In this document: positions 31,001 to 43,952 of the stretch, piece after piece
How the letters are laid out: each line of letters begins with the position of its first letter
How positions within the stretch are numbered: the stretch's first letter is position 1
Origin: Candidatus Dojkabacteria bacterium
Lineage (GTDB): Bacteria > Patescibacteriota > Dojkabacteria > B142 > JAFGFJ01
Length of the DNA stretch: 64,000 nt
Reading direction: 5' to 3'
NCBI GenBank assembly: GCA_016931155.1
Contig: JAFGFJ010000006.1
Coordinates: forward strand, 314,896 to 378,895
Notes under the pieces: model-generated
Told to the model about the DNA's origin: nothing
Database searches by the model: none
What the model saw: only the letters and a program-made list of their open reading frames with translations
Program-made: the position numbers and the translations under genes

Positions 31001-31684
31001 ATGGCGTTTTTAGGAAGAAAAGAAACAACAACTCAGGAACATCTTGATATTGAGGATGTCAGAGATGATCTTGTTGTGTTAAAAAATGGTAACGTTTCTC
31101 TTGTTATGGAGACGACTTCTTTGAACTTTGATCTTCTTTCGGAAGAGGAACAGGATATACGAATTCTTGCCTTTGCAGGGCTTATGAACTCATTGAATTT
31201 CCCTGTACAGATAGTTGTTAGAACAGAAAGAACAGACGTAACTGATTATGTAGATAAGCTAAAGATCTATAAGGAAAAACAGATTTCGTTGGCCTTAAAA
31301 AGACAAATAGAGATTTACATGCAATTTATTAAGAATCTTACTGTGAACACCGAGGTTCTTGATAAAAGATTCTTTGTTGTTATACCAGGAATAATATCAA
31401 GTATACAAAGAACTAGTGCTGTGAGACAGATCTTCGGTAAACCAGTAAAAATTAAAAATATCGAGGAGGTGCTTGAAAAAGCCAAATTACTTCTTTATCC
31501 AAAACGTGATCATCTGCTGAAGCAGTTTCAAAAAATGGGGATAATTGCAGAGCAACTAAAAACTGATGATTTAATACGTTTGTATTACGGTATTTATCAA
31601 CCGGATACTCCTGGAATTAAGAAATTAATTTTGAAAAAACAGGATTTTTCTACTGGGATTGTAGAAACTTTAAAAGAAGAATAA
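31001..31684 (+). CDS. Hypothetical soluble protein, possibly a stand-alone VirB4 N-terminal-domain-like partner
   Basis: 227-aa ORF ending 4 nt before the VirB4-like gene. Its pattern (LDIEDVRDDLVVLKNGNVSLVMETTSLNFDLLSEEEQD...LNSLNFPVQIVV) recalls the N-domain of VirB4/TraC ATPases, but it has no Walker motifs. The functional call is inference. Confidence 0.6.
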   Translation: MAFLGRKETTTQEHLDIEDVRDDLVVLKNGNVSLVMETTSLNFDLLSEEEQDIRILAFAGLMNSLNFPVQIVVRTERTDVTDYVDKLKIYKEKQISLALKRQIEIYMQFIKNLTVNTEVLDKRFFVVIPGIISSIQRTSAVRQIFGKPVKIKNIEEVLEKAKLLLYPKRDHLLKQFQKMGIIAEQLKTDDLIRLYYGIYQPDTPGIKKLILKKQDFSTGIVETLKEE

Positions 31685-31688
31685 CAAT

Positions 31689-33635
31689 ATGTGGATATTT
31701 GGAAAAAGCAAAAAAGAAAAGGAAAAAGAGAAGGAACAGACAAGTCAGTCAGAGGATCTTGAAGAGAAGGCAATTGAAAAATTCGCTGAGGGATTGATTG
31801 ATGTAAAAGATCTGATAGCTCCGTCAGCGATGGAGGTGGATTTTAACGATGTTCTTGTAGGAAATAAGTACTTTAGAACTTTCCTTGCTACTGGATTTCC
31901 AAGCCATGTCGGACCAAATTGGCTTTCTCCACTTATCAATTTTGACTTTCCTGTAGATATAAGCACGTTTTATTATCCTGTGGATAGTTCAATGATAATG
32001 CAAAGACTCAAACGAAAGATTGGAGAAATGGAGGCAACAATCAGTCTTGATCTTGAAGCAGGAAAAGTGGTTGATCCATATGTTAAGGTTGCACTTGAAG
32101 ATGCAAAGAATTTACAGGAACAAATAGCAAAAGGTACAGAGAAATTTTTTCACTTTGCTCTTTATGTAACTATTCGAGCAGGCAGTATCAGGGAGCTTGA
32201 AAAAATCTCGAAGAATCTTATTTCAACAATGTCTTCTATTAGTGTGATTCTAAAGGTGGCTACTTTGCAGCAGGAACAAGGTTTTCAGAGTGTTGTACCT
32301 GTAGGAATAGACAAGATCTATATGACCAGAAATATGGATACGACCTCTTTGGCGACCACATTCCCATTCGTTAGCTCAGAGCTTACTATGGATACTGGTA
32401 TTTTGTACGGAATAAATAAACACAATAGAAGTCTTGTGATTTTTGACAGGTTTGAACTTGAAAATGCTAATGCAGTTGTTTTTGCAACTTCCGGGGCGGG
32501 AAAAAGTTATATGGTAAAGCTTGAGGCTATGAGAAGTCTTATGTTCGGGACTGAAATACTGATAATTGATCCCGAAAGAGAATATGAGAAGCTAACGAAA
32601 ACAATTGGAGGAGAATACGTATCGTTTTCGCAAGATGGCGCGCAAAAATTGAATCCATTTGAGCTTTCAGGAATTTATGACAAAGATGAAGACGAGCTAA
32701 GAATGAAAATTCTATCACTTCACGGCCTTATGAGGATTATGATGGGTGGAGATTTTTCTCCGGAAGAATCTGCAATACTTGATAGGGCACTTATTTTGAC
32801 GTATAAAGAAAAAGGCATTACGGTTGATCCTGTCACACACAAAAAAGAACCACCTCTTCTTGAGGATTTATATAAGATTCTCCAGGCAATGGCAGAGCCT
32901 CAAGCTCATAATCTTGCGACAAGACTTGAGAGGTTTGTAAGAGGAAGTGCAGCTGGTATTTTTGACAGAAAATCAAATATTGAGATTAAGAATACATTTA
33001 CTGTTTTTAGTATTCGAGAGTTGAGTGATGACCTAAGGCCTATAGCAATGTATATGATGCTTGATTTTATTTGGACAAGAGTGAAAAGACTTCGAAAGAA
33101 AAGACTTCTAATAGTGGATGAGGCATGGTGGATGATGCAGTATCCAGATGCAGCAAAATTTATCCACTCAATGGCAAAAAGAGCCAGAAAGTACGGTCTT
33201 GGGCTTACTACAATTACTCAAGATGTTGAGGACTTTTTGAGTACGGATTACGGGAAAGCTGTTGTTACAAATTCATCAATACAAATATTAATGAAGCAAA
33301 GTCCTGTAGCTATAGATAAGATTCAGAAGATATTCTATTTGTCTCAAGGTGAGAAGAACTATCTACTTTCAGCAGGTATTGGGGAAGGTCTATTCTTTGC
33401 CGGATCAAATCATGTGGCAATTCAGGTAATTGCGAGTGAAAATGAGCATAATCTAATAACTACATCTTATAAAGATATGGAGAAAGAGGAGAAGAAAAAA
33501 GCGGCATTGGCAGAAGAAGCTGTAAAAAATGCCGGAATTGGTATTGCAGATATTCCTGAAAATACAAACCAGCAAGTTTCCCCTACTGATAATATTAATT
33601 CCTATACTGGTAATACTTCTTCCAATGCGGTATAA
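31689..33635 (+). CDS. VirB4/TrsE-like type IV secretion ATPase
   Basis: N-domain (YFRTFLATGFPSHVGPNWLSPLINF), Walker A ATSGAGKSYMVK, Walker B RLLIVDEAWWMM, and a TTITQDVEDF block. 648 aa. Confidence 0.85.
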   Translation: MWIFGKSKKEKEKEKEQTSQSEDLEEKAIEKFAEGLIDVKDLIAPSAMEVDFNDVLVGNKYFRTFLATGFPSHVGPNWLSPLINFDFPVDISTFYYPVDSSMIMQRLKRKIGEMEATISLDLEAGKVVDPYVKVALEDAKNLQEQIAKGTEKFFHFALYVTIRAGSIRELEKISKNLISTMSSISVILKVATLQQEQGFQSVVPVGIDKIYMTRNMDTTSLATTFPFVSSELTMDTGILYGINKHNRSLVIFDRFELENANAVVFATSGAGKSYMVKLEAMRSLMFGTEILIIDPEREYEKLTKTIGGEYVSFSQDGAQKLNPFELSGIYDKDEDELRMKILSLHGLMRIMMGGDFSPEESAILDRALILTYKEKGITVDPVTHKKEPPLLEDLYKILQAMAEPQAHNLATRLERFVRGSAAGIFDRKSNIEIKNTFTVFSIRELSDDLRPIAMYMMLDFIWTRVKRLRKKRLLIVDEAWWMMQYPDAAKFIHSMAKRARKYGLGLTTITQDVEDFLSTDYGKAVVTNSSIQILMKQSPVAIDKIQKIFYLSQGEKNYLLSAGIGEGLFFAGSNHVAIQVIASENEHNLITTSYKDMEKEEKKKAALAEEAVKNAGIGIADIPENTNQQVSPTDNINSYTGNTSSNAV

Positions 33636-33643
33636 ATAAAAAG

Positions 33644-34204
33644 ATGTTTCCACTAGATATTTTTACAAAACAATTCAACCTGAGTGGGCTAGTACTTATA
33701 GCCTCTGTTGCTATTTTTTCTTTGGCAGTAATTATTCTTTTGGTGAATGTTGTTATATTAAACAGGAAGCTAAAAAAAGCTACTACACCGACGTATGGTT
33801 TTGCAGGAAAGCCAATATATCCCATTATTGCAACATTGCTAATATCTGTATCTATACCTCTAGCTGTATATTCTTTATCTCAGGAGACTACTTTTGAACA
33901 AAAAGCAGAAGAAAATGTGATTCTACAGAGTAGTCATTATGTGGTATCAAGAGATGGGGAGAATTTACGGCTTGAGTTTAATGTTGTTCCATATGTAGAT
34001 GGGGTAGCTTGGGGAGAAAAGTCGTTTGATATTTTCTGGTCATTTAAGGGAAAAACATCCAAAACTAGCTATGAGTTTAATAAATCTGCGATTAATCCCA
34101 GTAAAATGACAATTACTTTGCCAAAAGGTGAGTATGATCTTACTATTCTTGTTACTTATGAGAATAGATCTCAGAGGTTAGAACAAAAGCTTGTTCTAAA
34201 ATAA
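33644..34204 (+). CDS. Hypothetical two-TM membrane protein with a beta-rich C-terminal domain (last gene of the VirB4 module)
   Basis: TM helices LVLIASVAIFSLAVIILLVNVVIL and IYPIIATLLISVSIPLAVYSL. It starts 8 nt after the ATPase stop. No family recognised. Confidence 0.7.
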   Translation: MFPLDIFTKQFNLSGLVLIASVAIFSLAVIILLVNVVILNRKLKKATTPTYGFAGKPIYPIIATLLISVSIPLAVYSLSQETTFEQKAEENVILQSSHYVVSRDGENLRLEFNVVPYVDGVAWGEKSFDIFWSFKGKTSKTSYEFNKSAINPSKMTITLPKGEYDLTILVTYENRSQRLEQKLVLK

Positions 34205-34227: not shown

Positions 34228-34233
34228 TATTTC

Positions 34234-34626
34234 GGTCTAGTCAGAACGGTCGCTAAGCGTGAGCTTAGAGGAAAGTCCGAACTCCTCTTGGCACAATAGT
34301 CAGGACAAGGTACCTTGGAGACAAGGCAGGGAGTGATCTCTGGGATTAGAGCAACAGAAAGTAAGGAGCCTGCGAATTGCAGGCGATCTTGAAAGGGTGC
34401 CTCCGGGTTTTTCTGGGGGGCGTACATGAAATTTCATGTATGACGTGTAAGAGACCACCGGTCACGATAGTAATATCGAGATGCTGGTAATCCCTATCGG
34501 GAGCAAGATCAAAGTGTAGATCGCAAAGTGTTTGTTCTTTTGATTAATCAGAACAAATACTGCTAGAGAAATGACCGTCATTCTGGTGTTGCCAGAAAGA
34601 ACAGAATTCGGCTTATTGACTAGACC
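34234..34626 (+). ncRNA. rnpB: RNase P RNA (bacterial type)
   Basis: Universally conserved GAGGAAAGTCCG at 34268-34279 and ACAGAATTCGGCTTAT at 34601-34616. P1 pairs GGTCTAGTCA (5' end) with TGACTAGACC (3' end). T6 follows at 34629-34634. The track ORF 34227..34427(-) is a shadow ORF. Confidence 0.92.
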
Positions 34627-34734
34627 ATTTTTTCAACCACTTCAGGAGTATTTCCATTTGGGTGCATAATACTTCCTGTATAGAAACCATTATTTCTTGA
34701 AAATTTCAATTTACAGTGGGAACACATAGATACA

Positions 34735-39274: not shown

Positions 39275-40033
39275 CTAGAGTTCCAAAGCAATTACCACAA
39301 TTCTGTTGTCACTTCCCCCGGGTACTCCTGATTGAAGTGAACAGGATATTATCTTGATAAAGTTTCGTTTTGATGTTTCGTAAATATTTACGTCGTTCGG
39401 ATTTTTTATTGTGACACTCCGAACTGAGTATCTTATTGGCTTTCCTGATGGATCATTTACCTGAATTAGATCACCCTTTTCTAGAAGATTTATATTCCAG
39501 CAACTTCTTGGGTCATCTTGTTGAAAGTATCTTCTGTGGCATAGTACTATTGTTTCACCGTTTCCAGGAGTACTGGAAGATGGATACATCCAAAATCCTT
39601 GATCCATTAGAGAATCACCATCGCTTCCCCCGAACACATTTGCTCTCACATTTATTTTTGGAATGATTAACTCTCCAATTACTCCTGTTGTAACTTTGGT
39701 ATCGAATGCAAACTTTTGTTGCTCAGGCGAGAGAATATCATCTCTTGTATATATTTTCTCTTTATTCAATTGACTGTCTTGAGCAGTGGAAGTATCTTCT
39801 GTACTGCTTTTTTGTTTCTCTTCTTCCACCTTCTTAACCTCTGACATTGAAGGAACTAAAAAATTATATCCGTACTTCTGCCTACCATTTTCTCCTTTTA
39901 AAAATACTGAAATAAGGCTTATATGTGTTGTTCTTGCCTTTGTGTATAGAAAAAGTCCGCTAACAATAAGAAAGCTTAGTATAAACAAAATAAAAATCAC
40001 CTTTGTTGTTGAATCTTTTTCCTCGTTTTCCAT
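39275..40033 (-). CDS. Sortase-family transpeptidase, membrane-anchored, with atypical active-site contexts
   Basis: N-terminal TM helix, then LIIPKINVRANVF...PGNGETIVLCHRR (His)...GDLIQV...NFIKIISCS (Cys)...DNRIVVIA (Arg). Canonical sortases read GHR and TLxTC at the His and Cys sites. Confidence 0.7.
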   Translation of the reverse strand: MENEEKDSTTKVIFILFILSFLIVSGLFLYTKARTTHISLISVFLKGENGRQKYGYNFLVPSMSEVKKVEEEKQKSSTEDTSTAQDSQLNKEKIYTRDDILSPEQQKFAFDTKVTTGVIGELIIPKINVRANVFGGSDGDSLMDQGFWMYPSSSTPGNGETIVLCHRRYFQQDDPRSCWNINLLEKGDLIQVNDPSGKPIRYSVRSVTIKNPNDVNIYETSKRNFIKIISCSLQSGVPGGSDNRIVVIALEL

Positions 40034-40098: not shown

Positions 40099-40107
40099 TG
40101 ATATAAT
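40099..40107 (+). promoter_or_regulatory. Extended -10 promoter (TGATATAAT) of the Cys-rich protein gene
   Basis: Exact TGnTATAAT. It overlaps the track's ATG at 40106, so the ATG at 40130 is the likelier start (~17-nt leader). Confidence 0.5.
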
Positions 40108-40129
40108 GCATTATTCCAATATAAAAACA

Positions 40130-41092
40130 ATGAGGAAGGAATTTGATGAGAAAAAAGTGAGGCTGGCTCTGATGGTTTGGGGATTTATGGTTATCCTTAT
40201 TGGGCTTATTATTGGAATTGTGACGGTTGGACCACAGCTTACTCCGCTTGAGGCACAAGGACAGATTTGCACGACTGGTGCAGATTGTCCTCCTTGTGAA
40301 TATCCACAGGTAGCTTTCTGCGACCATAGCGGATCTTCCAATCCTTGTCGTTCAGGAGAGGGTATATGTACATGTAGAGGCGTACCTCAAAGTGACCCAA
40401 CTTGTGGAGGTGCTGTTTGTATCTCAATTTCTCCGAGTGAGGCATGTGATCCTGGTGGGTGTCCTTCGGGTTACACTGACTGCGGGATAAGTGGTCACAG
40501 AACTGATAATTCTTCAGAATGTCAAGCTTTTGGCAGTTGTACTACTAGATGTGCTTCGTGTAATAACCCAACTACATTTGTTAGATATTGCAGACCGGAA
40601 GTTTCACCTGTTGAACCATCACCGTCACCGTCACCGTCACCATCACCGTCGCCCTCCTACCCAGACTATGAAATAGTAAAGGATGTTATTGACTCAGATA
40701 GTTTTTACGAAATAGGGGAGACTGTGAACTTTAGTGTTACAATCAGAAATACAGGGGATGTAACATTTGAAAAGGTAAAATTTAGGGATGTGTACAATCC
40801 TGCACGATTGGATTATCTATCTAGTCGTGGTAATAAAAATGGTGGCACAGACGTAGAGTTAAATTTCAATATTATTGAAAGTACTGGAATTATAACTCAT
40901 TCAAACCTTGCGGTAGAGTTGGGAAATTTGAATCCTGGGGATTACTATCGAATATTTTTTAGCTTTAGAGCTTTGGTAAGTGTTCCGAGAACATGCAACG
41001 AAGCCTTTGTTAATCCTGATGATTTGGGTGAGAAAAGGGACGATGCTTGTGTCTCGATTAATACTGTGTTTATTCCCGTACCTGATTTATAA
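40130..41092 (+). CDS. Membrane-anchored, extremely Cys-rich surface protein with a (PS)7 linker and a DUF11/CARDB-like C-terminal domain
   Basis: N-terminal TM helix LALMVWGFMVILIGLIIGIV. 17 Cys in ~115 aa (ICTTGADCPPCEY...CASCNN...YCRPE). PSPSPSPSPSPSPS linker. A beta-sandwich-like domain (GETVNFSVTIRNTGDVTFEKVKFRDVYNP). No LPXTG-type C-terminal sorting signal. Confidence 0.75.
   Translation: MRKEFDEKKVRLALMVWGFMVILIGLIIGIVTVGPQLTPLEAQGQICTTGADCPPCEYPQVAFCDHSGSSNPCRSGEGICTCRGVPQSDPTCGGAVCISISPSEACDPGGCPSGYTDCGISGHRTDNSSECQAFGSCTTRCASCNNPTTFVRYCRPEVSPVEPSPSPSPSPSPSPSYPDYEIVKDVIDSDSFYEIGETVNFSVTIRNTGDVTFEKVKFRDVYNPARLDYLSSRGNKNGGTDVELNFNIIESTGIITHSNLAVELGNLNPGDYYRIFFSFRALVSVPRTCNEAFVNPDDLGEKRDDACVSINTVFIPVPDL
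40616..40657 (+). repeat. Seven tandem 6-bp units (CCRTCA-like) encoding (Pro-Ser)7
   Basis: ccatca ccgtca ccgtca ccgtca ccatca ccgtcg ccctcc, read directly from the sequence. Confidence 0.9.
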
Positions 41093-41682: not shown

Positions 41683-42507
41683 CTAACTTGATAGTCCTTG
41701 CAGGATAACTAGACTTAATAGCAATACAACGAGATATTCCAGTAACACCTCTTTTTTCAAAGAACCTTCGAGTTTGTGATGAAGAATTGCACTCGTAATA
41801 TAGAAAACCAGTAGGGTGTATGAGGAAGTCGCAAGAATCGAAAAGTTCGTATACGAGCTTAACGCAACTACTGTTTCAATAATTACTAAAGTGGTAATTA
41901 GATTGAAAATAATAGTTAAATAATTGAACTGATTTCTTCTTATCGTGACAATAGTATTGATCATGAATGCTGTCATTCCAATAAGAACGTAAGAAAGAAA
42001 AGGATCAAAACCAAAGTAATTTATAGTTTCAAGAATTGTGTTTGTAAGCTGGAAAAAAGTGATAAATTTGATAATGTCATATATGTAATGAGTTCTTTCT
42101 TCCAATTTGAATTTGTCTTCATAATATGCCCTGATATTAATGAACATTAATGTAAATATGAAAAAGCAAATAAAGAAGAAGAAATACTTGGGAAGTGTCA
42201 GGTGGTAGTAATATATTATTCCCAAGCAAGACATATATAGAGCAGTAGGCAGTAATAAGTGATGTGTAAATTGACTGAATTTAGAATAGGTATCAACCTG
42301 TGGTATTTCCATTTGAGCCAGGATTTTTTTTGAGTATATTTGGCTTGTCAGTACCTCGAAAACAAATACCAGATAAAGGATTATGCTTGCGATGAAGAAT
42401 AATTTTTGTTCCAGATTTATCATGAGCTCAACAAGAAATATGAGACCGATTGAGATGAAAAAACCGTAAAAGATTCCTCTTCTATTGTTTATTAAAAAGT
42501 TCTTCAT
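41683..42507 (-). CDS. Hypothetical polytopic membrane protein (~8 TM)
   Basis: Hydrophobic segments throughout. 4-nt overlap with the upstream CAP-domain gene. No family recognised. Confidence 0.7.
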   Translation of the reverse strand: MKNFLINNRRGIFYGFFISIGLIFLVELMINLEQKLFFIASIILYLVFVFEVLTSQIYSKKILAQMEIPQVDTYSKFSQFTHHLLLPTALYMSCLGIIYYYHLTLPKYFFFFICFFIFTLMFINIRAYYEDKFKLEERTHYIYDIIKFITFFQLTNTILETINYFGFDPFLSYVLIGMTAFMINTIVTIRRNQFNYLTIIFNLITTLVIIETVVALSSYTNFSILATSSYTLLVFYITSAILHHKLEGSLKKEVLLEYLVVLLLSLVILQGLSS

Positions 42508-43952
42508 TTTGTTAACCCTTCAATTATCGTCCCACCTGCTCCTCCAATAAGTACCATCAAAAGCAGAACAATGAAATTTGAAATATGCAAATGATGCTTC
42601 CCTCTTTCTTTATAGCCCAGGGGAAGATTTGTCCTGGCAAGGAGTAGGGCATCAAAAACAAAGAGTGAGACTATAATGAGAAGTGCAGTAATACTTACAA
42701 CATTTTTTACGCTTGGAAACTCTCGAGCAATAATACTTATCAGTTTATTTGTTGCGATTTCTTTTGAGGAAAGAGTTTCCATTGTACTCAATACATTTCC
42801 TGTTTCAATGGTTGAAGATGTGATGTTTCCAGCTTTGTCAATCGCAGTAATTGCTAGCGTGTTAGAAGATTCAGTAATGGGTCTTGCTATGTCTACTTCC
42901 CAGTAATCAGAATAAGGTATGCGAACAAAATTTTTCTCTTCTTCGTTACTGTATAGATATACTTTTTCGGTGTCATCGGAAATAAGTATTCTGAGACGAT
43001 AATTATCAATATTTTCTGTTGACAATATTTCTAACAAATCTGTGTTTATTACTGGTGCTTGAGTGTCTACAACTACGCTAACTATACTTGATTTTTCGCT
43101 GGAAACCCCATGCTCGTCTATGGAATATGAAGATATCAAATGATTCCCCTGTTCAAAAGGTTTGTCTGATGGTGGCTTGTATATAAAGATACCCCCTTGT
43201 GCATCAATATCAGCAATGTTTTTTTCATTGTCAATTATTTTTACTTTTGTTTCCTTTTTTGCTCGACCTCTTATCGTGAAAAATTGATCGTTTGTCCAGG
43301 TACCATTCTCAGGCTCTTCAATTAAGGGGGTATTTTGAATGTCATTTGTTGGAAGTGCTTCTTTCACCTGATGTTTTGAATCACTTGTTATTGGAAGCGC
43401 ATTATAGGAGTTAACTTGAGAGCCGAAATGAACGACAACTACTACATTATTGGGGTTTCCCTGGAAGTTACCCTGAACAATGGAAATACCTATCTCTCTG
43501 AACTCTGGTTTCAGCATATTATCTCTATGACTGGGACTATTCATCCATGCCTGTACTACAGCTTCGTTATCATTAAAACCTTCTGCAAGGTTCTCTCCTG
43601 CATAAATATATTCATAATTCTGATCCTTGAAAAAATCCCAAGGCGATTTCTTATCGGGACAATAGTGAGACCAGCAGTCAGAAGCAAGCATTGCTTTAGC
43701 TTTTTCTGACGCAGAATTAGTCAGTTTGCTGCTAACTACTAATTTCGAAAGTCCTCTGCTGGTTCTTTCTTTATTATGAAGGCTGACAAGTATGGAAGTA
43801 TCGATCGCTGCGTAAGCTTTAGATATCGGTAAGCTTCCCACAGTAATATTAAAAATGAAGAGGATTAGAGTAAAAATGGCTAGACTTCCTTTTCTCAGAA
43901 GAAGTGGATAGTAATTATTTGTTTTAGTAGGAATGAATAAGTTTTTGATCAC
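42504..43952 (-). CDS. Secreted/membrane-anchored CAP (SCP/YkwD-like) domain protein with Ig-like repeats (GTG start)
   Basis: N-terminal signal/anchor. CAP block (LHNKERTSRGL...AGENLAEGF...AVVQAWMNSPSHRDNML). A beta-rich middle region. Two C-terminal TM helices. Confidence 0.78.
   Translation of the reverse strand: MIKNLFIPTKTNNYYPLLLRKGSLAIFTLILFIFNITVGSLPISKAYAAIDTSILVSLHNKERTSRGLSKLVVSSKLTNSASEKAKAMLASDCWSHYCPDKKSPWDFFKDQNYEYIYAGENLAEGFNDNEAVVQAWMNSPSHRDNMLKPEFREIGISIVQGNFQGNPNNVVVVVHFGSQVNSYNALPITSDSKHQVKEALPTNDIQNTPLIEEPENGTWTNDQFFTIRGRAKKETKVKIIDNEKNIADIDAQGGIFIYKPPSDKPFEQGNHLISSYSIDEHGVSSEKSSIVSVVVDTQAPVINTDLLEILSTENIDNYRLRILISDDTEKVYLYSNEEEKNFVRIPYSDYWEVDIARPITESSNTLAITAIDKAGNITSSTIETGNVLSTMETLSSKEIATNKLISIIAREFPSVKNVVSITALLIIVSLFVFDALLLARTNLPLGYKERGKHHLHISNFIVLLLMVLIGGAGGTIIEGLTK

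Follow-up and report, generated by a model that had tools for sequence, protein, structure and literature searches.

A TrsD-like gene beside a VirB4-type ATPase gene in Dojkabacteria and its relation to the VirB4 N-terminus

The window analysed here is a 64,000-nucleotide (nt) stretch of a Candidatus Dojkabacteria bacterium (GenBank assembly GCA_016931155.1, contig JAFGFJ010000006.1, positions 314,896 to 378,895 of the forward strand). It contains three successive genes encoding a PrgI/VirB3-like membrane protein, a 227-amino-acid (aa) protein of the TrsD family and a VirB4-type ATPase (Table 1), all of them relatives of type IV secretion system (T4SS) components. A preliminary description of the sequence had singled out the second gene, reading its product as a stand-alone protein without a P-loop that resembles a VirB4 N-terminal domain and is encoded just before the ATPase. 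The open reading frame (ORF) is present exactly as described, 4 nt upstream of that of the 648-aa ATPase, and Walker A was not found in its product.

The AlphaFold2 (AF2) model of the 227-aa protein, computed with 42 sequences, has a mean predicted local distance difference test score (pLDDT) of 78 and consists of an alpha/beta domain (residues 17-199) with disordered ends (residues 1-13 and 204-227). The motif quoted in the preliminary description is modelled as three beta strands (17-21, 24-27 and 32-38), a helix (48-64) and a further strand (70-79), with pLDDT values of about 80-92. This helix is the most conserved one of the protein, and residues N42, F43, L45, L46, E50, Q51, F58 and N63 are invariant in the 42-sequence alignment.

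The 648-aa ATPase belongs to the Pfam families P-loop_TraG, AAA_10 and DUF87, matches the CD1110-type VirB4 model of NCBIfam (E 4.8e-117) and is similar to the VirB4 C-terminal domain in the PDB (entry 4ag5, E 8.6e-47). Its residues 1-40 form a K/E-rich leader that has no counterpart in single-chain, or fused, VirB4 proteins, and residues ~41-250 correspond to the second sub-domain of the VirB4 N-terminal domain.

In the 421-aa PrgI/VirB3-like protein, an N-terminal PrgI domain that includes a hydrophobic hairpin (residues ~30-62) is joined by a long, charged linker to an immunoglobulin-like CarboxypepD_reg domain at the C-terminus. It is unusually long, and its architecture is kept in two other Dojkabacteria loci (L001 and L002) and upstream of one of the fused VirB4 proteins considered below (P0274). 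With two membrane helices in this protein, the CarboxypepD_reg domain is expected to be cytoplasmic, which is odd for a domain of this kind.

Table 1. Positions of the PrgI, TrsD-like and ATPase genes and of other features in the window
Feature	Position	Strand	Remarks
PrgI/VirB3-like membrane protein, 421 aa	29716..30981	+	Pfam PrgI, E 2.5e-10 (residues 6-90); CarboxypepD_reg, E 3.5e-7
TrsD-family protein, 227 aa	31001..31684	+	ATG start, TAA stop; no P-loop, no convincing transmembrane segment
Motif quoted in the preliminary description, residues 15-73 of the 227-aa protein	31043..31219	+	LDIEDV...PVQIVV
C-terminal tail, residues 204-227 of the 227-aa protein	31610..31681	+	Poorly conserved, predicted disordered, pLDDT < 50
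Spacer from the TrsD-like stop codon (TAA) to the ATPase start codon (ATG), 4 nt	31685..31688		CAAT; reading frames of the two genes differ
VirB4-type ATPase, 648 aa	31689..33635	+	Walker A ATSGAGKS, residues 266-273
186-aa protein	33644..34204	+	8 nt after the ATPase gene; one N-terminal hydrophobic segment; no Pfam or NCBIfam match
Bacterial RNase P RNA, class A	34233-34631	+	134 bits, full-length model match; ~30 nt past the 186-aa gene
Sortase	39275-40033	-	
DUF11-repeat surface protein	40106-41092	+	
CAP-domain / Big_13 secreted protein	42504-43952	-	

Homology and end-to-end mapping on single-chain VirB4

The 227-aa protein is a homologue of the N-terminal part of VirB4/TraC and a member of the TrsD family. 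It matches the NCBIfam TrsD/TraD model (NF041427) at positions 11-148 of 201 with 26.6 bits (E 4.6e-6), and all 42 aligned relatives match both TrsD and VirB4_plasma, the best TrsD match having an E-value of 1.4e-10; some of the relatives also match the VirB4 models CD1110, TIGR00929 and PRK13853. A family profile aligned by hhalign with TrsD of plasmid pSK41 over 182 columns (probability 94.8%, E 5.2e-8), with residues 7-202 of the family corresponding to residues 30-218 of the 227 residues of TrsD. Precomputed Pfam results for an identical protein and for relatives list PF26593 ('TraC-like', marked weak), a family also found at the N-terminus of fused VirB4. A scan of the 227-aa protein itself against a Pfam set lacking PF26593 returned only noise (DUF4928, CUT_C), and a PDB sequence search with it gave no significant match. 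At the level of structure, the top 14 Foldseek matches in the PDB were all TrwK/VirB4 chains of plasmid R388 (probability 0.99-1.0, E 1e-3 to 1.5e-2); for the matches below them the probability is 0.3 or less. The N-terminus of TrwK (PDB 7o42/8rtd; PF26593 and PF11130 TraC_F_IV) shares with the 227-aa protein the lead-in, the beta hairpin and the conserved helix pattern.

The neighbouring ATPase is incomplete at its N-terminus relative to full-length VirB4 models. On the CD1110 model (752 positions) it covers positions 178-734 only, leaving positions 1-177 without a match, and on VirB4_plasma (894 positions) it covers 279-893, the 227-aa protein matching positions 103-233 of the same model. 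The preliminary description had held that the ATPase already carries an N-domain of this type; what it retains is the second sub-domain, whose similar order of secondary-structure elements was probably what had been taken for the N-domain.

A tblastn search of plasmids identified a 754-aa single-chain VirB4 on a Carboxydocella plasmid, onto which both window proteins can be placed. Residues 1-205 of the 227-aa protein cover its residues 1-181 (blastp E 1e-18), followed in collinear order and with no overlap by the ATPase, whose residues 41-592 cover 186-742 (E 1e-71). Profile comparisons by hhalign gave the same layout, with the TrsD-like family (1-210) on residues 1-186 of fused VirB4 from Firmicutes only (probability 99.9%, E 6e-36) and the ATPase family (41-600) on residues 186-750 (E 6e-164). 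By both methods, the resemblance to VirB4/TraC N-termini noticed from the sequence alone goes far beyond chance. Natural fusions of a Patescibacteria-like type also exist, namely P0210 (787 aa) and P0274 (829 aa). Residues 8-200 of the 227-aa protein correspond to residues 7-199 of P0210 (41% identity) and residues 43-613 of the ATPase to residues 213-785 (59.6% identity), while the gene of P0274 directly follows a PrgI+CarboxypepD_reg gene resembling that of the window.

The two window proteins show no similarity to each other: hhalign of the TrsD-like family against the ATPase family, or against ATPase residues 36-260 alone, gave a probability of 0.1%, and blastp of the 227-aa protein against the ATPase found nothing. 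Because both proteins map end to end and without overlap on fused VirB4 and lack mutual profile similarity, the gene pair amounts to a single VirB4 cut in two, and the 227-aa protein corresponds to the first ~185 residues that the ATPase lacks. Of the 'split or duplicated' N-domain envisaged in the preliminary description, the split is supported by this mapping and the duplication is not. Likewise, the comparison of profile hidden Markov models that it had proposed was positive with the Firmicutes fused proteins and negative with both the N-terminal region of the adjacent ATPase and TrwK.

The break falls in a disordered linker between the two sub-domains. The tail of the TrsD-like protein (residues 204-227), for which the alignments to the Carboxydocella protein and P0210 show no counterpart in fused VirB4, is the loose end where VirB4 was broken. 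Residues 159-566 of the ATPase align with TrwK residues 329-741, from which the break is estimated to lie at about TrwK 200-215.

Spread of the gene family and stability of the split

ORF 31001-31684 represents a genuine gene, and one that is conserved. A protein identical to its product is on record in a Candidatus Dojkabacteria metagenome-assembled genome, and a word-index search returned 367 homologues with lengths of about 220-250 aa; the 120 best of them range from 188 to 257 aa in length and from 52 to 100% in identity. Among 1.84 billion cluster representatives, a profile built from the 42 relatives matched 2965 with E <= 1e-3, of which 1244 had E <= 1e-10; in species-representative genomes, 553 stretches code for a relative of the 227-aa protein.

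To follow the gene pair, 80 loci whose TrsD-like proteins are 44-63% identical were retrieved. A separate ATPase ORF on the same strand follows the TrsD-like gene in 78 of them, and the contigs of the remaining two end within about 350 nt of its stop codon. The gap between the two genes, measured in the 73 loci with both ORFs delimited, is mostly -50 to +30 nt, with extremes of about -100 and +650, and all three relative frames occur. In 63 of the 80 loci the TrsD-like gene is preceded, on its own strand, by one for a PrgI-like protein. The presence of separate ORFs across loci, with variable gaps and in all three frames, excludes a sequencing frameshift, and the split is an old and stable gene fission. 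In two loci (L058 and L085), the ATPase match begins ~2.8 kb past the TrsD-like gene, and only from ATPase residue ~244-273; the intervening stretch may hold an additional gene, a long tail or a very divergent N-terminal region.

The same split, in this gene order and with VirB4 broken at the same position, occurs on plasmids of Firmicutes. The pSK41 genes encode TrsC (135 aa), TrsD (227 aa) and TrsE (672 aa), and those of Clostridium botulinum pCBG a PrgI protein, a 'TraC family protein' (257 aa) and an ATPase (620 aa). A VirB3-like protein, a TrsD-like protein and a short VirB4 are encoded on both a Pontibacillus and a Brevibacillus plasmid, and TrsD and a short VirB4 on a Halobacillus plasmid. 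Residues 36-627 of TrsE correspond to residues 186-740 of fused VirB4, so that pSK41 and the window share a break point as well as the gene order of a VirB3-like protein (TrsC/PrgI), TrsD and an N-truncated VirB4 (TrsE). The prototype TrsD of pSK41/pGO1, to whose family TraD of pIP501 also belongs (NF041427; CONJScan T4SS_trsD; pGO1 subclass of MPF-FATA), has the same length as the window protein in pSK41 and likewise lacks a P-loop, although the window protein is only about 17% identical to it. Unlike the pSK41-type genes, the window trio is chromosomal, near a ribosomal-protein cluster, and its PrgI protein has the extra CarboxypepD_reg domain. VirB2/CagC-like pilin genes lie just before the trio on plasmids of Firmicutes, as in the Pontibacillus locus (L087, 249-704, 'Mbov_0395 family pilin-like') and in pSK41 (L089, 25115-25432, 'CagC family'). 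The 'TraD' of pELF plasmids was considered as a further relative of TrsD/TraD and set aside because it is a VirD4.

In Patescibacteria, TrsD homologues have been reported as the most abundant T4SS component, with 2,272 homologues, 1,664 of them beside virB4 (PMC12102498; Quinonero-Coronel et al., Microb Genom 2025). The same study describes TrsD-like genes next to virB4 and prgI, the phenomenon seen here, and notes a distant homology of TrsD to the N-terminal part of VirB4, without assigning TrsD a function. It also lists the TrsD homologue of Southlakia epibionticum ML1 as essential (citing Wang et al. 2023); Dojkabacteria are not named in its main text. Few machines have been shown to be essential to Patescibacteria in their life as epibionts, and the T4SS is one of them. 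TrsD is not named in the main text of Guglielmini 2014, and the papers on pNP40 and on TraF of pIP501 do not treat TraD.

Co-occurrence of the two genes across Patescibacteria, which the preliminary description had raised as a question, is thus the rule both in the loci sampled here and in the published survey. Its suggestion of an unusual accessory subunit does not hold, the protein being a member of a widespread family. The split arrangement is normal in Patescibacteria, was already described in 2025 and makes the present finding an ordinary one; it refines published knowledge and opens no new question. The present analysis adds the end-to-end mapping on fused VirB4, the relatives that are natural fusions, and the placing of the break, which lies in a disordered linker and is shared with TrsD/TrsE of pSK41. 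There is also a gain for annotation, as most such genes are labelled 'hypothetical protein', those on Firmicutes plasmids included.

Gene boundaries in this module vary in other ways. Some conjugative systems have VirB3-VirB4 fusions (cited in PMC12102498 and PMC12624023), in which the same set of VirB3, VirB4 N-terminal part and ATPase is joined, in contrast to the fission inside VirB4 seen here; no such fusions were found in Patescibacteria.

The starts of the two proteins show a further common trait. Beginnings of the form M-G/A-[LIVF]-[LIVF] (MGLF, MGIF, MGVF) occur in roughly 30-45% of both the TrsD-like and the ATPase families, according to crude start calls. The window proteins start with MAFL and MWIF (31001-31012 and 31689-31700), and the fused Carboxydocella VirB4 begins similarly with MSLLGKK.

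Proposed working of the split VirB4 and its alternatives

An ancient break within virB4 left the first sub-domain of the N-terminal domain (about 185 residues) as a gene of its own, and its product, the TrsD-like protein, most likely pairs non-covalently with the ATPase, held in place by PrgI. The TrsD-like protein and the N-truncated ATPase would be made together, probably with translational coupling, and would bind each other non-covalently to rebuild the canonical VirB4 protomer. In such a protomer the ATPase would contribute the second sub-domain (~41-250) and the motor domain, and the first sub-domain would be supplied in trans. By analogy with VirB3 of R388, the PrgI/VirB3-like protein would then probably enclose both pieces, keep them together and anchor the hexamer of the ATPase at the membrane, as part of the T4SS of Patescibacteria. 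As a working model, TrsD would complete the membrane-proximal, VirB3-binding part of the motor, VirB4 having been cut at a fixed linker.

In R388, VirB3 wraps the N-terminal domain of VirB4 and ties the central VirB4 hexamer to the membrane (Mace 2022; PMC12624023); the N-terminal region of TrwK is covalently joined to the rest of the protein, whereas that of the window is a separate polypeptide. The contacts and co-evolving positions of VirB3 listed for R388 involve TrwK residues 9-19, 54-65 and 219-226, and also 248-394 (Mace 2022 supplement). Because these fall on either side of the estimated break, a VirB3 counterpart would touch both pieces. By-eye comparison of patterns suggests that helix 48-64 (E50, Q51, F58, N63) takes the place of the VirB3-contacting TrwK helix at ~51-68.

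A 345-aa protein annotated as 'TrsD' on a plasmid of Halobacillus amylolyticus (L005, 4638-5675) may also bear on the contact with PrgI. Its residues 22-100 align with positions 3-76 of the 91-position PrgI profile at an E-value of 0.008, below threshold, and what precedes its gene is not a separate PrgI gene but one for a VirB2-like pilin of 74 aa. Judged from its sequence, the protein is probably a VirB3-TrsD fusion, which would offer weak Rosetta-stone support for a PrgI-TrsD contact.

Several points weigh against the proposed pairing. The 26.6 bits reached with NF041427 are far from the curated cut-off of 200 bits, and none of the 42 relatives comes near it. An hhalign comparison of the TrsD-like family with the R388 TrwK sequence gave no signal (probability 0.1), so the break was placed on TrwK through the ATPase alignment only, and the link of the family to VirB4 of diderms rests on fold similarity and on the intermediate fused proteins. 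Similarly, the assignment of the 227-aa model to the first rather than the second TrwK sub-domain is deduced from collinearity and from the model of a fused relative, which aligns with TrwK over 676 residues. The TrsD-ATPase and TrsD-PrgI complexes are postulated, 74 sequence pairs being too few for a co-evolution analysis. Finally, the long disordered tails of many homologues and the separation of TrsD genes from virB4 in Gracilibacteria (PMC12102498) may indicate a free subunit with extra roles.

These last two features fit an exchangeable assembly factor or adaptor, in which free TrsD would set when or where VirB4 docks on PrgI, or would recruit partners or substrates through its disordered tail. 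TrsD-like proteins of other Patescibacteria mostly carry C-terminal tails of 100-500 residues rich in P, Q, T, S and A and presumably disordered (representatives P0126-P0267), and an acidic ending, PFVVEEL.DDY, is conserved in several of them (P0228, P0255, P0267, P0236 and P0248). The split has moreover been retained for long in 78 of the 80 genomes though fused forms are viable. However, keeping a split can be neutral, the tail of the window protein is short (~24 residues) and there is no sign of partners beyond the genomic neighbours, which makes such a role improbable, if the least improbable of the alternatives. If it were true, the fission would be put to functional use, with tailed TrsD bringing substrates or partners to the essential T4SS of Patescibacteria.

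Far less credible is the duplicated paralogue favoured earlier, in which the 227-aa protein would duplicate an N-domain already complete in the ATPase and would regulate or adapt the hexamer. Its one attraction lies in the AF2 model of P0210, whose residues 16-198 and 218-360 follow a common order of secondary-structure elements (strand-strand-strand, helix, strand, two helices, strand, helix, strand). This order makes an ancient duplication within the VirB4 N-terminal domain conceivable, but profiles gave it no support under several hhalign settings (0.1%), and it would concern VirB4 proteins in general rather than the window locus. Both halves are present in single-chain VirB4, on which the two proteins map without overlap, and the 227-aa protein is hence not an extra copy; the ATPase, for its part, matches full-length models only from ~178-279 on and resembles the 227-aa protein in neither hhalign nor blastp. 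Slightly less probable still is an unrelated small alpha/beta protein lying beside virB4 by chance. A type III secretion system class I chaperone or YbjN-like fold was considered as an example, and neither matched the whole protein better than any other family; TrwK held all the leading Foldseek places and the sequence homology to VirB4 N-termini and TrsD is significant. As for a virB4 read as two genes through frameshift, sequencing error or pseudogenisation, the 4-nt spacing in different frames and the existence of rare fused forms could be taken to suggest it, but the separate ORFs in 78 of 80 independent genomes, with their range of gaps and frames, the recurrence of the split on the five plasmids and the separate start codons of the two pieces, together with the tail of one and the leader of the other, make it a negligible prospect. 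The paired VirB4 sub-domains thus remain the preferred explanation of the locus.

Genomic surroundings of the trio

The PrgI, TrsD-like and ATPase genes lie in a chromosomal housekeeping region, with ribosomal protein genes and GreA before them and the RNase P RNA and SecA genes after them. Between 22 and 49 kb of the window, a Pfam scan of ORFs with 150 aa or more recognised no relaxase, coupling protein, pilin or VirB6. The 186-aa gene that follows the ATPase gene has an equivalent of 189 aa in the matching place of the two other Dojkabacteria loci (L001/L002), and tblastn found a homologue in 24 of the 80 loci; its product is a possible further component of the secretion system.

Farther downstream, the sortase gene adjoins that of the DUF11-repeat surface protein, and together with the gene of the CAP-domain / Big_13 secreted protein they form a cell-surface cluster unrelated to the TrsD-like gene.

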